Source: a virus (lineage: Duplodnaviria; Heunggongvirae; Uroviricota; Caudoviricetes). From it: a DNA stretch of 8,820 nucleotides. The translations under genes and the position numbers were made by a program. This document shows, one piece after another, positions 1 to 8,820 of this stretch (positions are counted from its first letter, which is position 1; each line of letters opens with the position of its first letter). Below the pieces are notes generated by a model. It did not search any database. It was not told the DNA's origin and saw only the letters and a list, made by a program, of their open reading frames with translations. The stretch lies in IMG/VR virus record IMGVR_UViG_2778261688_000006; one strand, written 5' to 3'.

Positions 1-318
1 AACGAATGAGTAAAGAGCGCCGCGCGTTGTTTCCGGTATATCGACTTTGATGTACGGGTTAATTTGTCTGGCGACAGTGGCAAGGTCTTTATTCAAGAGT
101 GCTTTGCATTCTGCTTTGGTATACGTTTTACCGAGCATGATGTCTTTTCCGGTGTGTCCGTGACATACAGTCCATACGCCAACGATATCTTTGTATGGTA
201 CGTAGCTGACACCTTCCAGACCATCGTTACCACTTGGGCCAGTAATTAACACTGATGCTATAGCAATTGCTCCGCCACCAATAGCAGCAGCAACGGCTTT
301 TCGTAATGATGGAGGCAT
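1..318 (-). CDS. rrrD: SAR endolysin (phage 21 R21 / DLP12 RrrD-like lysozyme), partial: N-terminal 106 codons, C-terminus lies beyond the window start
   Basis: Reverse-strand translation from ATG at 318..316 gives [64 protein letters not shown]..., i.e. a Gly/Ala-rich signal-anchor-release helix followed by a T4-lysozyme-like E..D..T catalytic region. The ATG overlaps the pinholin stop (TAATG). Not in the ORF track because it runs off the window. Confidence 0.88.
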
Positions 319-533
319 TATTCACCTCTCGCAGCCTTGCGCTTATCTTCTTTAATCTTGAAATAAAGGTTTGTCAGGTACGTCAGCAGGCCAAATACCA
401 GGCTACCCAGCACACCTATTGCTGCCCACTGTGAGGGCGTGACTTTATCGAGCAGCTGTAAAAACCAGTAACCGGCACTACCTGCTGAGGTGCCATAGGC
501 GACACCCGTTGTTAACTTATCCATGGATTTCAT
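318..533 (-). CDS. essD: Class II holin / pinholin (phage 21 S21, DLP12 EssD-like), 71 aa, with dual-start motif MKSMDK
   Basis: The ORF-track 318..578 frame contains [71 protein letters not shown]: two TM helices and a charged C-terminus. I chose ATG at 533 (the track's upstream extension is probably not translated); GAGGTGG Shine-Dalgarno lies upstream; a second in-frame ATG at 524 fits the holin/antiholin dual start. Confidence 0.88.
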
Positions 534-661
534 AACCCCACCTCGCAGACAAAGCGGGTGTAAATTGAGGGAATACAACGTATCGCAAAAAAGCAGAAAC
601 GTAACAGACTCGGAGTCAGTGAATAACTCAGGTATTGGGTTATCAGCTAATATCGAGACTC

Positions 662-694
662 AAAAAATGGAAAAACCCGCTCGACGGCGGGTTT
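662..694 (-). terminator. Candidate intrinsic terminator oriented on the minus strand, about 130 nt upstream of the pinholin start
   Basis: 8-bp GC-rich stem AAACCCGC (673-680) / GCGGGTTT (687-694) with loop TCGACG; on the minus strand the stem is followed by TTCCATTTTTT (reverse complement of 662-672). The plus-strand tail is weaker (TTTAAG). Confidence 0.45.
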
Positions 695-1038
695 AAGCTG
701 TGTGACGAAGTAACCACTCTTAACAGCATAACCAATTTTTTACGTACGTAAACCACTAAATGATATTTGCGAGAATGCTACCGAGTATTGAAAACACCAC
801 TACAAATACATAAGCAAATCTCAACAAATAACCAACAAATAATTTCCAGCGTTATTTTTAGCTGGTTTAAATTGAATCTTCAAATTATAGAGCACTTATA
901 AATAACAGCCATTAATATAAATTGGCTAATAGATTTATTTTTATTCAGCCAAGAGCCATGAATAGGATTCGATAGAAAAAGTTCAGATAAAAATAGAGAT
1001 CTACTTCACAAATCAAATGAGAAACCAAAACTTACATC

Positions 1039-1067
1039 TTGAAATAATCACATTGATTAGATGAATA
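1039..1067 (+). promoter_or_regulatory. Candidate sigma70 promoter for the porin gene (weak)
   Basis: TTGAAA (1039-1044), 17-nt spacer, TGAATA (1062-1067), about 55 nt upstream of the porin ATG in an AT-rich region. Picked by eye only. Confidence 0.2.
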
Positions 1068-1120
1068 TTTATCGCGCAGTGACATCATTTTTTAATAATA
1101 GTTCAAAAAAAGGGCTCACG

Positions 1121-2203
1121 ATGAAAAAATTAACAGTGGCAATTTCTGCTGTAGCTGCATCAGTACTGATGGCGATGTCTGCTCAGGCAGCTGAAATTTA
1201 TAATAAAGACAGTAACAAGCTGGATCTGTACGGGAAAGTTAATGCTAAGCACTACTTCTCCTCTAATGATGCAGATGATGGTGATACTACTTATGCCCGT
1301 CTTGGCTTCAAAGGTGAAACCCAAATCAACGATCAACTGACTGGTTTCGGTCAGTGGGAATATGAATTCAAAGGCAACCGCGCTGAATCTCAAGGTTCCT
1401 CCAAAGATAAAACCCGTCTTGCCTTCGCTGGCCTGAAATTCGGTGACTACGGCTCCATCGATTATGGCCGTAACTACGGTGTAGCATACGATATTGGTGC
1501 ATGGACCGACGTTCTGCCAGAATTCGGTGGCGATACCTGGACCCAAACAGATGTATTCATGACTGGTCGCACCACAGGTGTTGCAACTTATCGTAACAAT
1601 GACTTCTTTGGTCTGGTTGATGGTCTGAACTTTGCTGCTCAGTATCAGGGTAAAAATGACCGCACTGACGTAACTGAAGCTAATGGTGATGGTTTCGGTT
1701 TCTCCACTACTTATGAGTATGAAGGATTCGGTGTAGGTGCAACCTATGCTAAATCTGACCGCACTAATAATCAGGTTATCTACGGTAACAACAGCCTGAA
1801 TGCATCTGGTCAAAATGCTGAAGTATGGGCAGCTGGTCTGAAATATGATGCGAACAACATCTATCTGGCCACCACCTATTCTGAAACCCAGAACATGACT
1901 GTTTTTGGTAATAACCATATTGCCAACAAAGCACAAAACTTCGAAGCTGTTGCACAATATCAGTTCGACTTCGGCCTGCGTCCATCCGTTGCTTACCTGC
2001 ATTCTAAAGGAAAAGACTTGGGTGTTTGGGGTGATCAGGACCTGGTTGAATATGTTGATGTAGGTGCAACCTATTACTTCAACAAAAATATGTCCACTTT
2101 TGTTGACTACAAAATCAACCTGATTGATAAGAGCGATTTCACGAAAGCATCTGGCGTTGCTACCGATGATATCGTTGCTGTAGGTATGGTTTACCAGTTC
2201 TAA
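1121..2203 (+). CDS. nmpC: OmpC/OmpF-family general porin (NmpC / Lc / OmpD-like), 360-aa precursor; prophage-encoded lysogenic-conversion moron
   Basis: ORF track 1061..2203; true start taken as ATG 1121 ([23 protein letters not shown]|AEIYNKD signal peptide with AQA-A cleavage site). Has the porin hallmarks of aromatic/Gly-rich beta-strands and a C-terminal ...VGMVYQF ending in Phe. It sits between Q and the lysis genes on the opposite strand, as nmpC does in DLP12 and lc in PA-2. Confidence 0.93.
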
Positions 2204-2227
2204 TTTGATTACTAAAAGATATGTTGT

Positions 2228-2298
2228 GGGAGGCTTTGCCTCCCCAACATATAAGTGGCTCCCTCAAGCCACTTCCTTTAGAAGCACAACCTTGCTTC
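2228..2298. repeat. Cluster of three short GC-rich hairpins between the porin stop and the Q stop
   Basis: GGGAGGC-TTT-GCCTCCC (2228-2244); AAGTGGCT-CCCTCA-AGCCACTT (2253-2274); GAAGCA-CAACCT-TGCTTC (2281-2298). None has a clean U-tract; possibly a structured leader RNA or terminator-like elements. Confidence 0.3.
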
Positions 2299-2340
2299 TA
2301 ACTATATAAACCTTCTGTTATATATTACCCTTTATTTTTG

Positions 2341-2366
2341 GGGGCGTTTCAACGCCCCATTTTTAA
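2341..2366 (+). terminator. Candidate rho-independent terminator for the porin transcript
   Basis: GGGGCG-TTTCAA-CGCCCC stem-loop (2341-2358) followed by ATTTTTAATAACTTTT on the plus strand; the minus-strand side is A-rich, so it is unidirectional. Confidence 0.5.
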
Positions 2367-2391
2367 TAACTTTTAGTAAATAATTGGCGTA

Positions 2392-2775
2392 TTAATTAGA
2401 GTTATTAACAACGATATCCATCTCTAACCGGATATCTAATGCCATTAACATCCCTTCAATTATGCCCTCAGCCTTTTGTAACCTTTTCCCGATATAACCA
2501 TCAGAGCAGCAATGCTTACCTGCCAGTGACATGAATGTCATACCGACTATATAATAATCTACTAATAAATCGTGCAAATCGCTGTTGTTCTTTTTCAGAC
2601 GGGCCATGCACCCGCAAATGATCATCGCGTCATCGTCACAACATTGCGGGCGAGATTTTACTTTTGAAGGAATTAATCCCTTAAAACCGGCGGCAATGGA
2701 CGACCAGGTCACATCTTCATGATTATTAGCCGCCCACGCTCCCCAACGCTCAAGAACCATCTGAATATCACGCAT
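2392..2775 (-). CDS. quuD: Late-gene antitermination protein Q (DLP12 QuuD-like / phage 21-82 type), 127 aa
   Basis: ORF track 2392..2790 starts at a TTG; I chose ATG at 2775 ([22 protein letters not shown]...), which is preceded by GGAG. Cys-rich region [16 protein letters not shown]...KHCCSDGY fits the Q-family zinc-binding fold. Gene order Q - porin - S - R matches DLP12. Confidence 0.88.
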
Positions 2776-2860
2776 CAACTTACTCCACAAAAATCAGACC
2801 AAAACGCCAATTACAAGCAAAAATCAACAAAACAGTATTAGTTGATTGTTATCTCTGACT

Positions 2861-2998
2861 TCATACTCCTGCTCCTGTCAGGGTTTTGGCGTAACTCTTC
2901 AGTATTCGGTAATCGGTCAAAACAGAACCGGGGAAACGATATAAGCGCAGGCGCACCCAGCGGCGGCGAAGACGTTCTGCCATATAAGACTCAAACAT
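2861..2998 (-). CDS. ylcG: Small basic ORF between rusA and Q (YlcG-like position), about 45 aa
   Basis: Frame [45 protein letters not shown]; its ATG overlaps the rusA stop (TGATG), suggesting translational coupling. An alternative start is ATG 2983 (40 aa). Too short for the ORF track; identity is from position and size only. Confidence 0.4.
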   Translation of the reverse strand: MFESYMAERLRRRWVRLRLYRFPGSVLTDYRILKSYAKTLTGAGV

Positions 2999-3360
2999 CA
3001 TTCATCTCCCAGTTCAGTGATGGTCAGTTCCAGCCTCCCACCTTTGGTAACAGGCATCTTCACAACGCGGTAATCAACGACCTGAGCATCATCCAGCCAG
3101 AAACCTGCTTTGGTGAGTGCGTCAAAAGCGGCCTTTTGCAGATTATCCAGGTCACGGCGACGGCGATCCGGCATGTGGCACTCAATGCGGATTTTCACAG
3201 GCATAGCCAGGCCGATATCCAGCATTGCGTTTTTAATGATTCGGGCGACGTTATCGCGGTATGCCTGCCCCTCTGCGCTGATGTGCGTGCGCCCGCGATT
3301 ATGGCGGTAATAGCGATTATTGCTCGGAGGCCAGGGTAATGTGATGCTGTAGGTATTCAC
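2998..3360 (-). CDS. rusA: Holliday-junction resolvase RusA, 120 aa
   Basis: [26 protein letters not shown]...[10 protein letters not shown]...[11 protein letters not shown] is recognisably RusA. The first codon is GTG (reverse complement of 3358-3360), preceded by a GAGGGGGG Shine-Dalgarno. Confidence 0.93.
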
Positions 3361-3380
3361 GCCTTAATAACCCCCCTCTT

Positions 3381-3575
3381 TCAGCCAGATAACCTGTGTT
3401 CTCGCCATACCTTCCAGCGCGCATTCTTTTGCATATGCAGCATCGACTTGCTTGGCATGCCCTTTACCGGCAATCTTCTGTATGCGCTAAACCTAGATAG
3501 AATCCACTCTGTGCACATTGAAGCCCGCTCTATGCTTCCTTTCAGGTATTGAAGGGATTGAGATGGGCTAAGCAT
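3381..3575 (-). CDS. Small nin-region ORF with a NinF-like N-terminus; possibly a frameshifted or chimeric pseudogene
   Basis: ORF track 64 aa, [19 protein letters not shown]...; the first ~19 residues resemble lambda NinF (from memory) but the expected CxxC...CxxC zinc ribbon is absent. An alternative frame over 3364-3486 encodes ...[27 protein letters not shown] with no start codon, ending 3 nt before rusA. Confidence 0.3.
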
Positions 3576-3915
3576 TATTGGCCTCCTGCATCAGGAGAAA
3601 GACAATCATGGCGGCGCGGAGAGGTCTGGTATCAAATATTGGGCTTACGCCTTTTGCATCCACACACCATTCAGTTAACTGGTCTAAGATAGAAATCCTG
3701 TATTTCTCAATAATCGGCCATGAAGCGCTCGGATCATTGCAGTAGTCAGGCAAATGATTTAATGGCTCAAAAGTTGTATCAGCATTTCCGTAATACCATT
3801 TGTTGGTGTTATTCCCTGATGTTTCCGGTTTACTTGCCCAAAGGCCTTTAAAAATTATGTCTCCTACCATTCTGTTAATTTCAAAATCACTTAACTGTGA
3901 ATAATCCATTGTCAT
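3568..3915 (-). CDS. Hypothetical nin-region protein, 115 aa, function unknown
   Basis: ORF track 3568..3951; I chose ATG at 3915 ([24 protein letters not shown]...) because it overlaps the ninE stop as ATGA, implying coupling. No motif I can assign. Confidence 0.55.
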
Positions 3916-4088
3916 TTCCTCGCACGATATCTTAGCCACCGGATATCCCACAGGTGAGCCGTGTAATTGAAGGTTTTTACGTCAGATTCTTTTGGGATTG
4001 GCTTGCGTTTATTTCTGGAGCGTTTCGTTGGAAGGTATTTGCAGTTTTCGCAGATGATGTCGGTGATACTTCGTCGCTGTCGTCTCAT
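3912..4088 (-). CDS. ninE: NinE-like protein, 58 aa
   Basis: [58 protein letters not shown] sits inside ORF-track 3912..4178; ATG 4088 is preceded by AGGAGG and overlaps the methyltransferase stop (ATGA). Confidence 0.8.
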
Positions 4089-4612
4089 TCGTACCTCCTG
4101 ACGCCCTGCCCGATCGCCATCAATGCCGCTTTGGATACAGTAGTAAACATCCGTCGAGGACTGATGAACGGTCGCCAAATCAGCAGCATGGAGCCTTTGC
4201 TGTTTCCCTTCTTCTCCAGCCCCGTCGATGGTTCGATAAAATTAATCCGTCCATCAGTGATAATGCGAACTTCGTCGACACTCTCCAGAGCCTTGCTGAA
4301 CCATCCGACTGACATATCCTCTGGCACAAGCATCACTACCGTCTGTCGCTGTTGTATGCACTGCTCAGCGGCTTTTTCCACCCACGGCCTGATATTGCTG
4401 TACGGTGGGTTATTCCAGATTGCACCGTGGCTTACCCACTCAGAATTGAGCGCGTCGTCGGCCTCAGTTAGCCAGTGAGCACACAGAGCATTTTTGTCGC
4501 TCGCTGCCGAATCCAGCCAGAATCCAAACTCAATATCCAGTGCATCAAAAAGCCAAAGCGGCGTTTGCCAGCAGTCCTTGTCGTGTGCTGGCGTATTTGA
4601 TTTGATAGTCAT
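4085..4612 (-). CDS. Phage Dam-like DNA N6-adenine methyltransferase (orphan, no adjacent restriction enzyme), about 175 aa
   Basis: ORF track 4085..4672; likely start ATG 4612 ([38 protein letters not shown]...), which overlaps the ninB-fragment stop (ATGA). Contains the amino-methyltransferase catalytic motif NPPY ([11 protein letters not shown]). An alternative start is ATG 4630. Confidence 0.82.
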
Positions 4613-4731
4613 GCAGCCCGATCTCCCCATCTCGCTTTCCACTCCAGAGCCAGTCTCGCTTCGTCTGACCACTTAACGCCACGCTCTGTACCGAATGCCT
4701 GTATAAGCTCTAATAGCTCCGCAAATTCGCC
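4609..4731 (-). pseudogene. ninB: NinB 3' fragment (C-terminal ~40 codons only); 5' end removed at the junction
   Basis: Minus-strand frame ends ...[40 protein letters not shown], which I recognise as the lambda NinB C-terminus. Upstream of 4731 the same frame runs antisense through N with no NinB-like sequence, so the ORF-track 4609..4863 ORF is an artefact. Confidence 0.75.
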
Positions 4732-4957
4732 TAACCGCCCTATTCTCTCGCTGAATCGCAAACCGAAATCACGAGTAGAAAGCGCACTAAATCCGATAGA
4801 CCTTACAGTGCTGGCTGAATACCACAAACAGATTGAAAGCAACCTGCAACGTATTGAGCGCAAGAATCAGCGCACATGGTACAGCAAGCCTGGCGAACGC
4901 GGCATAACATGCAGTGGACGCCAGAAAATTAAGGGAAAATCGATTCCTCTTACCTAG
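4732..4957 (+). pseudogene. N: Antiterminator N, 3' fragment (about codons 34-107); no start codon, arginine-rich boxB-binding N-terminus missing
   Basis: Plus frame 4733..4957 translates NRPILSLNRKPKSRVESALNPIDLTVLAEYHKQIESNLQRIERKNQRTWYSKPGERGITCSGRQKIKGKSIPLT* (lambda N C-terminal part). Upstream in-frame sequence back to the TGA at 4598 has no ATG/GTG/TTG and no N-like residues. Confidence 0.85.
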
Positions 4958-5509
4958 TTACTTAGATATTGGCCTTGGCTTTATCTCAATATTATATGGA
5001 TCATAGCTGGCAACTAATTCAGTCCAGTAAATATCCTCAATAGGGAATAATATATGCTTCCCGTTCCATCGGGAAAAAGTTTTGTTCAACACACCAAGCT
5101 CAATCAACTCACTAATGTATGGGAATTGTTTTGATGTAACCACATACTTCCTGCCTTCATTAAGGGCTGCGCACAAAACCATAGATTGCTCTTCTGTAAG
5201 GTTTTGAATTACTGATCGCACTTTATCGTTTTGCATCTTAATGCGTTTTCTTAGCTTAAATCGCTTATATCTGGCGCTGGCAATAGCTGATAATCGATGC
5301 ACATTAATTGCTAGCGAAAATGCAAGAGCAAAGACGAAAACATGCCACACATGAGGAATACCGATTCTCTCATTAACATATTCAGGCCAGTTATCTGGGC
5401 TTAAAAGCAGAAGTCCAACCCAGATAACGATCATATACATGGTTCTCTCCAGAGGTTCATTACTGAACACTCGTCCGAGAATAACGAGTGGATCCATTTC
5501 TATACTCAT
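4958..5509 (-). CDS. sieB: Superinfection exclusion protein SieB, 183 aa
   Basis: ORF track 4958..5512 begins at a TTG; ATG at 5509. Hydrophobic N-terminal segments (MYMIVIWVGLLLL..., VFVFALAFSLAI) fit a membrane protein. Position and orientation match lambda sieB, antisense within the pL operon and convergent with N (adjacent stop codons). Confidence 0.88.
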   Translation of the reverse strand: MSIEMDPLVILGRVFSNEPLERTMYMIVIWVGLLLLSPDNWPEYVNERIGIPHVWHVFVFALAFSLAINVHRLSAIASARYKRFKLRKRIKMQNDKVRSVIQNLTEEQSMVLCAALNEGRKYVVTSKQFPYISELIELGVLNKTFSRWNGKHILFPIEDIYWTELVASYDPYNIEIKPRPISK

Positions 5510-5636
5510 CAAACTGTAGGGGTTGTAATAGTTTATCCGATTTCTCGCTGTAGGGGTACACGAGAACCACCGAGCCTGATGTGGTTAAAAGACAGGCACA
5601 ATCTTTACTACCGCAATCCACTATTTAAGGTGATAT

Positions 5637-5723
5637 ATGGAAGAAGAATTTGAAGAGTTCGAAGAGCATCCTCAGGATGTGATGGAACAATACCAGGACT
5701 ATCCGTATGACTACGACTATTGA
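5637..5723 (+). CDS. Lambda orf28-like small acidic ORF, 28 aa
   Basis: ATG 5637: MEEEFEEFEEHPQDVMEQYQDYPYDYDY*, overlapping the ral start. Position corresponds to lambda orf28. Too short for the ORF track. Confidence 0.4.
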   Translation: MEEEFEEFEEHPQDVMEQYQDYPYDYDY

Positions 5724-5907
5724 TAAAAATCAATGGTGTGGACAATTCAAGCGATGCAATGGATGCAAGCTGCAATCGGAATGCATGGTTAAGCCTGAAG
5801 AAATGTTTCCTGTAATGGAAGATGGGAAATATGTCGATAAATGGGCAATACGAACGACGGCAATGATTGCCAGAGAACTTGGTAAACAGAACAACAAAGC
5901 TGCCTGA
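5707..5907 (+). CDS. ral: Ral, restriction alleviation protein (modulates type I R-M), 66 aa
   Basis: MTTTIDKNQWCGQFKRCNGCKLQSECMVKPEEMFPVMEDGKYVDKWAIRTTAMIARELGKQNNKAA matches lambda Ral as I remember it. Confidence 0.93.
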   Translation: MTTTIDKNQWCGQFKRCNGCKLQSECMVKPEEMFPVMEDGKYVDKWAIRTTAMIARELGKQNNKAA

Positions 5908-5953
5908 TAGTGGCCTTTATTTTTGGCATAAATAACAGAATAAACACTGCACT

Positions 5954-5981
5954 GTGTATTCATTCCAACGAGTGAATACAC
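5954..5981. repeat. Perfect 9-bp inverted repeat with 10-nt spacer in the ral-ea10 intergenic region
   Basis: GTGTATTCA (5954-5962) ... TGAATACAC (5973-5981); no U-tract follows, so it looks more like a protein-binding palindrome or RNA-processing hairpin than a terminator. Confidence 0.4.
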
Positions 5982-6043
5982 GGAGCAATGTCGCTCGTAA
6001 CTAAACAGGGGCCGACTTGTTCTGATTATTGGAAATCTTCTTT

Positions 6044-6069
6044 GCCCTCCAGTGTGAGGGCGATTTTTT
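6044..6069 (+). terminator. Candidate rho-independent terminator inside the pL operon (tL2-like), just upstream of ea10
   Basis: GCCCTC-CAGTGT-GAGGGC stem-loop (6044-6061) followed by GATTTTTTA. Confidence 0.6.
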
Positions 6070-6089
6070 ATCTATGAGGATATGAATAG

Positions 6090-6458
6090 ATGTCAAACAT
6101 CAAAAAATACATCATTGATTACGACTGGAAAGCATCAATAGAAATTGAAATCGACCATGACGTAATGACAGAGGAAAAACTTCACCAGATTAATAATTTC
6201 TGGTCAGACTCTGAATACCGACTCAATAAACACGGCTCTGTATTAAATGCTGTATTAATCATGCTGGCGCAACATGCTCTGCTTATAGCAATTTCAAGCG
6301 ACTTAAATGCATATGGTGTTGTGTGTGAGTTCGACTGGAATGATGGAAATGGTCAGGAAGGATGGCCTCCAATGGATGGTAGCGAAGGAATAAGAATTAC
6401 CGATATCGATACATCAGGAATATTTGATCCAGATGATATGACTATCAAAGCCGCCTGA
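6090..6458 (+). CDS. ea10: Lambda early protein Ea10, 122 aa
   Basis: ORF track 6090..6458, MSNIKKYIIDYDWKASIEIEIDHDVMTEEK...; 183-bp spacing from ral, as in lambda. Confidence 0.88.
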   Translation: MSNIKKYIIDYDWKASIEIEIDHDVMTEEKLHQINNFWSDSEYRLNKHGSVLNAVLIMLAQHALLIAISSDLNAYGVVCEFDWNDGNGQEGWPPMDGSEGIRITDIDTSGIFDPDDMTIKAA

Positions 6459-6483
6459 GCGCGGCGTTACCGCATACCAATTA

Positions 6484-6504
6484 CGCTTCACTCGAGGCGT
6501 TTTT
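6484..6504 (+). terminator. Candidate hairpin plus U-tract upstream of cIII (terminator or cIII mRNA regulatory structure)
   Basis: CGCTTC-ACTC-GAGGCG (one G-U pair) followed by TTTTTCGTT, about 25 nt before the cIII Shine-Dalgarno (AAGGAG). Confidence 0.35.
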
Positions 6505-6530
6505 CGTTATGTATAAATAAGGAGCACACC

Positions 6531-6695
6531 ATGCAATATGCCATTGCAGGGTGGCCTGTTGCTGGCTGCCCTTCCGAATCTTTACTTGAACGAATCACCC
6601 GTAAATTACGTGACGGATGGAAACGCCTTATCGACATACTTAATCAGCCAGGAGTCCCAAAAAATGGATCAAACAATTATGGCTATCCAGACTAA
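6531..6695 (+). CDS. cIII: CIII, FtsH/HflB protease inhibitor stabilising CII, 54 aa
   Basis: Hand translation from ATG 6531: [54 protein letters not shown]; AAGGAG Shine-Dalgarno upstream. Too short for the ORF track. Confidence 0.9.
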   Translation: MQYAIAGWPVAGCPSESLLERITRKLRDGWKRLIDILNQPGVPKNGSNNYGYPD

Positions 6696-6807
6696 ATTCA
6701 CTATCGCCACTTTTATTGGCGATGAAAAGATGTTTCGTGAGGCCGTCGACGCTTATAAAAAATGGATATTAATACTGAAACTGAGATCAAGCAAAAGCAT
6801 TCACTAA
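6664..6807 (+). CDS. kil: Kil, host cell-division (FtsZ) inhibitor, 47 aa
   Basis: C-terminal 47 codons of ORF-track 6538..6807: [47 protein letters not shown]. The upstream part of that ORF is an out-of-frame overlap with cIII and is not counted. Confidence 0.88.
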
Positions 6808-6882
6808 CCCCCTTTCCTGTTTTCCTAATCAGCTTGGCATTTCGCGGGCGATATTTTCACAGCCATTTTCAGGAGTTCAGCC

Positions 6883-7179
6883 ATGAACGCTTATTACATT
6901 CAGGATCGTCTTGAGGCTCAGAGCTGGGCGCGTCACTACCAGCAGATCGCCCGTGAAGAGAAAGAGGCAGAACTGGCAGACGACATGGAAAAAGGCCTGC
7001 CCCAGCACCTGTTTGAATCGCTATGCATCGATCATTTGCAACGCCACGGGGCCAGCAAAAAAGCCATTACCCGTGCGTTTGATGACGATGTTGAGTTTCA
7101 GGAGCGCATGGCAGAACACATCCGGTACATGGTTGAAACCATTGCTCACCACCAGGTTGATATTGATTCAGAGGTATAA
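6883..7179 (+). CDS. gam: Gam (short GamS form), RecBCD nuclease inhibitor, 98 aa; the long-form N-terminal extension is frameshifted
   Basis: ORF track 6883..7179, [60 protein letters not shown].... The GamL start ATG at 6762 ([24 protein letters not shown]...) is in a different frame and hits a stop after 49 codons. Confidence 0.93.
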
Positions 7180-7184
7180 AACGG

Positions 7185-7970
7185 ATGAGTACAGCACTCG
7201 CAACGCTGGCTGGGAAGCTGGCTGAACGTGTCGGCATGGATTCTGTCGACCCACAGGAACTGATCACCACTCTTCGCCAGACGGCATTTAAAGGTGATGC
7301 CAGCGATGCGCAGTTCATCGCATTACTGATCGTTGCCAACCAGTACGGCCTTAATCCGTGGACGAAAGAAATTTACGCCTTTCCTGATAAGCAGAATGGC
7401 ATCGTTCCGGTGGTGGGCGTTGATGGCTGGTCCCGCATCATCAATGAAAACCAGCAGTTTGATGGCATGGACTTTGAGCAGGACAATGAATCCTGTACAT
7501 GCCGGATTTACCGCAAGGACCGTAATCATCCGATCTGCGTTACCGAGTGGATGGATGAATGCCGCCGCGAACCATTCAAAACCCGCGAAGGCAGAGAAAT
7601 TACGGGGCCGTGGCAGTCGCATCCCAAACGGATGTTACGGCATAAAGCCATGATTCAGTGTGCCCGTCTGGCCTTCGGATTTGCGGGTATCTATGACAAG
7701 GATGAAGCCGAGCGCATTGTCGAAAATACCGCATACACTGCAGAACGTCAGCCGGAACGCGACATCACTCCGGTTAACGATGAAACCATGCAGGAGATTA
7801 ACACTCTGCTGATTGCCCTGGACAAAACATGGGATGACGACTTATTGCCGCTCTGTTCCCAGATATTTCGCCGCGACATTCGCGCATCGTCAGAACTGAC
7901 ACAGGCCGAAGCAGTGAAAGCTCTTGGATTCCTGAAACAGAAAGCCTCTGAACAGAAGGTGGCTGCATGA
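7185..7970 (+). CDS. bet: Bet (Red beta) single-strand annealing protein, 261 aa
   Basis: ORF track 7185..7970, [66 protein letters not shown]...; its stop overlaps the exo start (ATGA). Confidence 0.97.
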
Positions 7971-8647
7971 CACCGGACATTATCCTGCAGCGTACCGGGA
8001 TCGACGTGAGAGCTGTCGAACAGGGGGATGATGCGTGGCACAAATTACGGCTCGGCGTCATCACCGCTTCAGAAGTTCACAATGTGATAGCAAAACCCCG
8101 CTCCGGAAAGAAATGGCCTGACATGAAAATGTCCTACTTCCACACCCTGCTTGCCGAGGTTTGCACCGGTGTGGCTCCGGAAGTTAACGCTAAGGCGCTG
8201 GCCTGGGGAAAACAGTACGAGAACGACGCCAGAGCCCTCTTTGAGTTCACTTCCGGCGTGAATGTTACTGAATCCCCGATCATCTATCGCGACGAAAGTA
8301 TGCGCACCGCCTGCTCTCCCGATGGTTTATGCAGTGACGGCAACGGCCTTGAACTGAAATGCCCGTTTACCTCCCGGGATTTCATGAAATTCCGGCTCGG
8401 TGGTTTCGAGGCCATAAAGTCGGCTTACATGGCCCAGGTGCAGTACAGCATGTGGGTGACGCGAAAAGATGCCTGGTACTTTGCCAACTATGACCCACGA
8501 ATGAAGCGTGAAGGCCTGCATTATGTCGTGGTTGAGCGGGATGAAAATTACATGGCGAGTTTTGACGAGATGGTGCAGGAGTTCATCGAAAAAATGGACG
8601 AGGCACTGGCTGAAATTGGTTTTGTATTTGGGGAGCAATGGCGATGA
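7967..8647 (+). CDS. exo: Lambda exonuclease (Red alpha), 5'-3' dsDNA exonuclease, 226 aa
   Basis: ORF track 7967..8647, [65 protein letters not shown].... Confidence 0.97.
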
Positions 8648-8820
8648 AGCATCCTCACGATAATATCCGGGTAGGTGCGATCACTTTCGTCTACTCCGTT
8701 ACAAAGCGAGGCTGGGTATTTCCCGGCCTTTCTGTTATCCAAAATCCACTGAAAGCCCAGCGGCTGGCTGAGGAGATAAATAATAAACGAGGGGCTGTAC
8801 CGGAACCAGATTGGCGATAA
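8638..8820 (+). CDS. Lambda orf60a-like protein, 60 aa
   Basis: ORF track 8638..8820, [50 protein letters not shown]...; overlaps the exo 3' end, as orf60a does in lambda. Confidence 0.75.

Follow-up and report, generated by a model that had tools for sequence, protein, structure and literature searches.

A deletion junction between N and ninB in a cryptic lambdoid prophage of Escherichia coli and its recurrent endpoint in N

Introduction

The subject of this study is a window of 8,820 nucleotides (IMG/VR virus record IMGVR_UViG_2778261688_000006, Caudoviricetes), by which we mean the whole stretch of DNA that was analysed, and in particular the place near its middle where a fragment of the antiterminator gene N meets a fragment of ninB. 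An earlier note, made from the sequence alone, had put a deletion or fusion junction at 4731|4732, with N truncated at about codon 34 and joined to the last ~40 codons of ninB, and had suggested that the element is either a domesticated cryptic prophage or an engineered deletion. Here we describe what lies at this locus, compare it with a prophage in which the missing segment is still present, and argue that the junction is very probably the scar of a natural deletion, the N endpoint of which is shared with a number of independent events.

Results and Discussion

On the plus strand, the remnant of N (N', 4733..4957) comprises codons 34–107 and the stop codon of the antiterminator gene, and it matches lambda N at 99.2–100% from lambda position 35262 on. 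The N sequence sets in at the last base of codon 33, codon 34 (AAC) is at 4733–4735, and the stop codon is at 4955–4957. A functional N protein has an arginine-rich, boxB-binding N-terminus (residues 1–22) and nut sites in cis. The remnant, by contrast, has no start codon, no arginine-rich motif, no Pfam N36 domain, no nutL and no pL, and both nutL and nutR fall in the deleted interval. The frame of N does stay open back to 4601, that is, for 44 codons 5' of the junction, and the content of this extension is antisense ninB and methyltransferase sequence. There is no ATG, GTG or TTG in this frame before 4808, and the arginine-rich motif is also absent upstream, so the overlooked start codon and N-like N-terminus that would have contradicted the earlier note are not present.

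On the minus strand, the remnant of ninB (ninB', 4609..4731) consists of the last 40 codons and the stop codon of NinB/Orf, and its sequence agrees at 100% with that of the ninB 3' end in E. coli AJ1 (locus L002, 19609–19733), so that its derivation from ninB, another point on which the note could have failed, holds as well. It covers only positions 110–131 of the 131 positions of the Pfam NinB domain (PF05772) with 20.3 bits, which is under the cut-off of 23.8 bits, as compared to positions 2–131 and 183 bits for the intact AJ1 protein. Only 40 of the 146 residues of NinB are thus left. The left neighbour of the junction is an intact gene for a Dam-like N6-adenine methyltransferase (4085..4612, minus strand; Pfam Dam, E 6e-65, and AJ1 annotation), and to the right, convergent with N', follows the intact superinfection exclusion gene sieB (4958..5440, minus strand; Pfam SieB, E 1e-29, and AJ1 annotation of the identical sequence).

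The comparison with the prophage of E. coli AJ1 (NZ_OZ547217.1) defines the junction to the base. Window positions 1–4733 correspond to L002 15001–19733, and positions 4732–8799 to L002 23440–27507, in both cases at 100% and without gaps. The undeleted span is 12,507 bp in AJ1 and 8,799 bp in the window, meaning that 3,708 bp are missing. The two blocks share exactly 2 bp, the TA at 4732–4733, which is present in both parental sequences and within which the position of the crossover is ambiguous. The parental flanks are cgccTAcacg on the ninB side and cagtTAaccg on the N side, while the product reads cgccTAaccg, which corresponds to a 2-bp microhomology. When compared with phage records, window 4400–4733 finds methyltransferase/NinB DNA at 100% and window 4732–5100 finds lambda N/sieB at 99.2–100%, with no single phage record spanning both sides of the junction in these two comparisons. 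The junction inferred in the earlier note is therefore confirmed, down to the two collinear blocks with a single breakpoint and the microhomology that it had proposed to look for.

In AJ1, the deleted interval covers N codons 1–33, ninB codons 1–105 and, between them, a hypothetical gene, the gene for a LexA-family repressor, a cro-like gene, cII, O'-P and ren. On the lambda map the same two points lie at 35262 and ~40958, and nutL, oL/pL, rexBA, cI, oR/pR, cro, nutR, cII, O with ori, P and ren are found between them. The loss of repressor, early promoters, cro, cII, replication genes and ren that had been deduced from the lambda gene order is thus borne out by both the map and the AJ1 annotation. 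The gap of roughly 5.7 kb that had been given along with it is right in lambda coordinates, but it overstates the deletion relative to the nearest intact relative, because the AJ1 prophage lacks rexAB and most of O. Specifically, there is no separate O gene at L002 20410–21192, where a 260-residue 'replication protein P' begins 33 nt past cII, at the usual start of O. This suggests that the AJ1 protein could be an in-frame O'-P fusion that has lost ori. The head genes are also missing from the AJ1 prophage.

It is important to point out that the window is not an isolated sequence. All of its 8,820 bases are found at 100% in a draft E. coli genome (GCA_002227175.1, L195 1358–10177), and three other assemblies, which are independent of it, contain the junction as well (GCA_021472325.1, GCA_961210755.1 and the Logan run SRR12645874), the carriers differing by 0–3 single-nucleotide polymorphisms over the shared length of 8.8 kb. 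In the carriers, the element lies between DLP12-type late genes and the chromosomal mdtABCD genes. A 34-mer spanning the junction gave zero matches among 5,426 complete E. coli genomes and was not found in the GTDB species representatives, the JGI metagenome contigs or IMG/VR. The junction, for which the earlier note had considered both a strain-specific feature and a construct, is accordingly natural and lineage-specific.

A second deletion is found at the right end of the window, so that at least two internal deletions have affected the element. The AJ1 match ends at 8799, and the final 21 nt of the window come from a lambda-family integrase gene, within the part that encodes the C-terminus. 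In the resulting fusion orf60a'-int' (8644..8820, plus strand), orf60a (DUF1317) breaks off at about codon 53 and is continued at 8799|8800, in a different frame, by the 3' end of int. This junction removes xis and most of int, of which the last ~40 codons are kept, and it joins GGGGCTG^TATGCAC to GAGGCTA^TACCGGAA, such that there is again a TA microhomology. The orf60a' fusion protein that results has 58 residues, and records of it exist for 22 contigs. In the source genomes, the int remnant runs through its stop codon straight into the upstream region of mdtA, followed by mdtB, mdtC, mdtD and baeS. An integrase gene next to the point of integration, which had been suggested as a further check, is thus present, although as a remnant only.

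On the basis of these results, we consider it very likely, with a probability of roughly 90%, that the N–ninB junction was left behind when a lambdoid prophage of a natural E. coli lineage underwent a spontaneous deletion by illegitimate recombination. The recombination would have joined two TA dinucleotides separated by 3.7 kb, at N codons 33/34 and at ninB codon 105, and would thereby have taken out, in one step, the start of N together with nutL and the operator-promoters pL and pR, as well as the repressor, cro, cII, O'-P, which was already crippled, ren and most of ninB. This is supported by the presence of both flanks in one AJ1 prophage, by the TA seen in the parental sequences, and by the second deletion with a TA microhomology. 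The AJ1 relative is itself defective in replication and morphogenesis, with its O'-P fusion and without head genes, which points to a stepwise decay. As far as can be judged from its sequence, the element is a grounded, disarmed cryptic prophage, with both stepwise decay and disarmament visible in it. Such a course agrees with the general picture in which 'grounded' prophages subsequently decay by deletion (PMC6379469).

The gene content also allows one to rationalize why a deletion of this extent could have persisted. For a prophage that is unable to excise, induction would kill the host via in-situ replication, Kil and lysis. The loss of the repressor alone would then be lethal, so that viable deletions would have to take pL and pR as well. 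Deletions that extend from within N past P would meet this need, and could hence survive and spread. Other N-anchored deletions, found in other genomes, reach O (L005), the cro region (L054), ninB (L001) and the holin region (L129 and L201), or extend into P22-type structural genes (L003, L004, L130 and L203). In the window, Red, kil, cIII and ral are left without pL and nutL, and the nin, Q and lysis genes without pR and nutR. The intact Red, kil, cIII, ral, Q and lysis genes are therefore probably silent.

A number of points weigh against this explanation in its simple form. The silence of the intact genes is a prediction, and that the repressor and the promoters had to be deleted together is something that we infer. 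Furthermore, the AJ1 prophage is at another site than the element of the window, whose int remnant is also different, so that AJ1 is a sister rather than the literal ancestor. Finally, the endpoint on the N side is non-random, and spontaneous random illegitimate recombination is thus incomplete as a mechanism.

The locus itself is ordinary. Events of this kind are known, and the present one is a new case, one more step in the well-known decay of prophages to harmless remnants. It is, nevertheless, a clean example, since the state before the deletion can be read base for base from a sister prophage, and it illustrates the constraint that the loss of the repressor would be safe only together with that of both early promoters. 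The feature that merits follow-up, and the only one, is the recurrent endpoint in N.

This endpoint corresponds to N nt 99–100, the TA within GTTAAC. Including the window, eight independent junctions keep N from exactly TAACCGCCCTATTCTC, with the preceding four bases being different in each of them, and the left partners that are joined to the shared endpoint TAACCGCCC also differ. In the window, the TA is preceded by CGCC and the left partner is ninB codon 105, while at L001 (also L006, L125 and L126) it is preceded by GCTG and the partner is ninB codon 22. The other junctions have CGGT and P22 gp26 (L003), GCAT and a gp16-type gene (L004), TGGT and a sequence upstream of a holin gene (L129), CTGA and a sequence adjoining a holin gene (L201), CCGG and a region near a Q-like antiterminator gene (L202), and CGAC and the P22 scaffold gene (L203). 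In addition, the reciprocal event was found at L207, where N codons 1–33 are kept and GTTA is joined to ^TACCGTGC of an Ea22-side gene. On the evidence of these sequences, the TA at which N is broken in the window was used by at least seven other independent deletions and by one reciprocal event, and the protein P0172 (D|NRP) probably represents one more. Three N alleles are represented among the junctions, which argues against descent from a single event.

Where the undeleted partners could be located, they have TA at the crossover, and the microhomologies are TA, TA, TA, TTA, GTTA and GTTAAC. L202 differs in that it has zero microhomology and a partner without TA, and yet its N starts at T99, which places the break on the N side 5' of T99. 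No insertion sequence (IS) element is present at any joint; the N side is invariant, and the partners share only TA. Past the cut, the partner sites read TAACC, TACCC (twice), TACCG (twice), TAACG, TACGG, TACAC, TACTG, TATGC and CATCC, which hints, post hoc, at a loose preference for ^TA(A)CC.

Five large junctions were found elsewhere in the 5' half of N, at nt ~66 (L005), ~72 (L130), 83 (L054 and L205) and ~110 (P0168). TA occurs at nt 83, 99 and 108 in the first 140 bases of N, and the two junctions at nt 83 both lie at G^TAAGC, the only other TAA, which could be a weaker second site. When only the 11 events are counted whose detection did not depend on the junction sequence, six share a single 3-base bin; calculated from the counts, the probability of this is of the order of 1e-9 for even spacing over about 220 bases. 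These figures have to be read with the caveats that the sample is small, that L003 was noticed through a flank resembling that of the window, and that endpoints deep in N are harder to detect. The excess is strong even when counted among nine TA sites. Among 119 IMG/VR loci carrying the 33-mer, no mosaic boundary or break of homology is seen at the site in intact N genes, and the only junction is L006, a deletion of the L001 type. Intact N genes run through the site, which is thus not a module boundary of viable phages. Literature searches returned no description of a hot spot in N, and as far as they show, the reuse of one TA in this gene is undescribed.

Two further rearrangements of N were seen in the course of these searches. 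A large clade of E. coli O157 genomes has N nt 1–61 only, joined to a site-specific integrase gene, that is, in the opposite direction and at another point. The protein P0105, in the part of N that corresponds to window 4714–4775 in intact relatives, has an in-frame internal deletion (AKP|KSRV) between the short direct repeats CGCAAAACC and CGCAAACC, which flank the recurrent site.

Several candidates for what sets the N endpoint were considered and discarded. A hairpin or cruciform is not indicated, the single-strand DNA folds having z = −1.7 and −1.3 with the site unpaired. A blunt cut of the HpaI type does not fit the retained T99 and the zero-microhomology case L202. Of the motifs compared by eye, the IS5 target YTAR fits five of the eight junctions only, and the integron GTT core, the TopA rule (C at −4) and inverted repeats at the ends of the deleted segments each miss some junctions. 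A Hin/Gin pseudo-site has one half-site only, with the cut offset by one base; for a cosN-like site, which matches at 9 of 12 positions, the predicted nick is three bases away, and a DnaG primase start at CTG is two bases away. Gene conversion from a prophage of the L001 type is contradicted by the different ninB endpoints, and a mosaic boundary by the intact N genes that cross the site.

With these results at hand, the possible refinement and the alternatives to the deletion scenario can be weighed. According to the refinement, the endpoint in N is determined not by chance but by a break or strand exchange that prefers the TA of GTTAAC, with the cut at GT^TAAC, 5' of T99. The junction of the window would then be one product of a recurrent process, driven by an enzyme or by a structure, through which lambdoid prophages are disarmed. 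The different left partners of the eight junctions, the start of L202 at T99, the break of the reciprocal L207 at the same TA, the involvement of three N alleles, the small number of large junctions elsewhere in the 5' half of N, two of them at nt 83, and the absence of a mosaic boundary among the 119 IMG/VR loci all speak for it. They have to be set against the fact that no enzyme or structure was found, with single-strand folding being unremarkable and the HpaI-type, IS5 YTAR, Hin/Gin, cosN and primase-start candidates each missing some junctions, and against the size and partial preselection of the sample. On balance, we regard a site preference of this kind as somewhat probable. The more far-reaching proposal, that GT^TAACC at N nt 99–100 is a true hot spot of breakage or strand exchange, usable from either side, with partners that are often ^TA(A)CC, is a tentative one that we would not yet bet on. 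It would imply a host or phage activity, for example a TA-staggered nuclease or a topoisomerase-like or transposase-like enzyme, that repeatedly generates prophage-disarming deletions, and the two TA junctions of the window would be two of its products. If the reuse of the endpoint is true, a specific molecular activity, and not random deletion, would channel part of the disarmament of prophages.

The GTTAAC sequence at the breakpoint is also what makes an engineered deletion, such as a recombineering or expression construct with Red retained, worth considering, since the HpaI site in N has served for cloning in pL vectors and since Red is kept while immunity and replication are lost. However, the window is identical over all 8,820 bases to a contig of a natural isolate, located between DLP12-type late genes and mdtABCD, its junction recurs in several unrelated sequencing projects, and there is no vector, selection marker or scar. 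In addition, T99 is retained, which a blunt GTT|AAC cut would not give, and pL, which would be required to drive Red in such a construct, is deleted, with no promoter-like site in window 4000–6200. Of the two origins offered in the earlier note, only the cryptic prophage thus stands, an engineered origin being extremely improbable in view of the natural draft genome and the three further assemblies. Equally negligible is the possibility that two lambdoid prophages of one genome were misjoined during assembly. Repeats common to such prophages do confuse short-read assemblers, but here only 2 bp are common at the join, with no repeat that could be collapsed, the identical junction is present in four independent assemblies from different pipelines, and similar junctions occur in closed genomes. 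One can also ask whether the junction creates a new functional gene, either the 84-codon minus-strand open reading frame (ORF) at 4609–4863, which combines antisense N with the C-terminus of NinB, or N(34–107) as a protein that titrates NusA or RNA polymerase. The minus-strand frame does cross the junction, the N frame is open for its 44 upstream codons, and other genomes contain in-frame fusions of N' to upstream ORFs with start codons. In the window, on the other hand, N' has no start before 4808 and no promoter-like site nearby, the fusion contains only 40 of the 146 NinB residues, and neither ORF is on record as a called gene; look-ups of the 49-residue N' ORF, the 84-residue fusion ORF and the 60-residue orf60a' form gave no match. 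A new gene is therefore very unlikely, although slightly less so than an artefact or a construct.

Returning to the natural deletion, it is instructive to compare the element with known prophages. Leaving the deleted interval aside, the AJ1 prophage is 100% identical to window 1–8799, and farther out on the left arm the identity is 99.98%; L195 1–10177 and L002 13644–27507 have one mismatch in the 6 kb left arm and none in the right. Unlike the window, AJ1 has both N and ninB in full length, as well as the repressor, cro, cII, O'-P, ren, xis and int, and it sits at att-lambda, between ybhB and ybhC, whereas the element of the window adjoins mdtA. The same prophage at two sites would imply a swap of the int module or a rearrangement between two prophage sites.

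The element resembles, and can be grouped with, DLP12, Rac and Qin, which are cryptic lambdoid prophages of E. coli. With DLP12 of K-12 it shares the late/nin gene set and its order, namely essD, porin (nmpC/ompC-like), quuD, ylcG, rusA and ninE, and DLP12 is likewise a non-inducible remnant with internal deletions that fuse unrelated gene fragments. It differs from DLP12 in having a complete Red/kil/cIII/ral/sieB block and in adjoining mdtA instead of argU, and the N'-ninB' fusion is not present in K-12. The argU prophage L001 (E. coli O9:H10 Res13-Lact-PEB20-37-A and relatives) has the same N endpoint and TA microhomology, and has also lost immunity and replication while keeping Red. The differences are the ninB endpoint (codon 22 instead of 105), an N allele of 94% identity, another chromosomal site, and an IS1 downstream. 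The defective lambda of recombineering strains, of the cI857 delta(cro-bioA) type, is similar to the window in that it does not excise and retains gam-bet-exo. It keeps, however, pL, N and cI857 and loses everything to the right of cro, whereas the window has lost pL, the start of N and the repressor and keeps the nin/Q/lysis region. As to the recombination itself, microhomology-mediated illegitimate recombination in E. coli, as known from the literature on the lambda Spi- assay (e.g. PMC11372144), gives joints with few shared bases and no long homology. The short homologies of that process are described as varied, whereas in the present case one dinucleotide of N is reused by many independent events.

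The remaining genes of the window complete this picture. Gene names in this work are taken from the annotation of the 100% identical AJ1 sequence by the Prokaryotic Genome Annotation Pipeline (PGAP), from Pfam scans, and from gene calls in L195. Window 318..4088 is a DLP12-like late/nin region, for which the AJ1 annotation and the L195 gene calls give the holin gene essD (318–533, minus strand), an OmpC-like porin (1121–2203, plus strand), and, all on the minus strand, quuD (2392–2775), ylcG (2861–3001), rusA (2998–3360), ninX (3568–3909) and ninE (3912–4088). In L195, the genes for lysozyme and Rz, which lie directly outside the left end of the window, are intact. On the other side, the plus-strand segment 5707..8647 is the rest of the pL operon, now promoterless, with ral (5707–5907), DUF2528 (6090–6458), cIII (6531–6695), kil (6664–6807), gam (6883–7179), bet (7185–7970) and exo (7967–8647), all of them intact according to AJ1 PGAP and the L195 gene calls or Pfam. 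The annotation of the identical AJ1 sequence shows intact genes for Gam, Bet, Exo, Kil, CIII, Ral, SieB, QuuD, RusA and the holin, and the expectation that Red, anti-restriction and lysis genes had survived the deletion was thus correct.

The window accordingly has the collinear N, sieB, ral, cIII, kil, gam, bet and exo genes and the nin/Q/lysis region of a lambdoid prophage, and its integrase remnant adjoins the mdtA upstream region. What an inducible prophage would need, that is, the repressor and operators, early promoters, replication genes, int and xis, falls in the two deleted intervals. In a simple scan of window 4000–6200 for sigma-70-like promoters, none was found, as compared to 4.0 +/- 2.1 in shuffled sequences.

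Some minor observations can be added. Four terminator-like hairpins are present in window 4000–6200, where 1.7 are expected. One IMG/VR contig (L171, 6848–7411) has an integrase of the type represented by the remnant at the right end of the window, followed by a leucine-rich-repeat ORF that resembles an effector of the IpaH/SspH type. Finally, Gam is annotated as a 98-residue form starting at 6883. Upstream, in another frame, there is a 50-codon ORF with its ATG at 6762, which is similar to the N-terminus of the long form of lambda Gam and makes a frameshift relative to lambda possible in the gam region (window 6762–7179).

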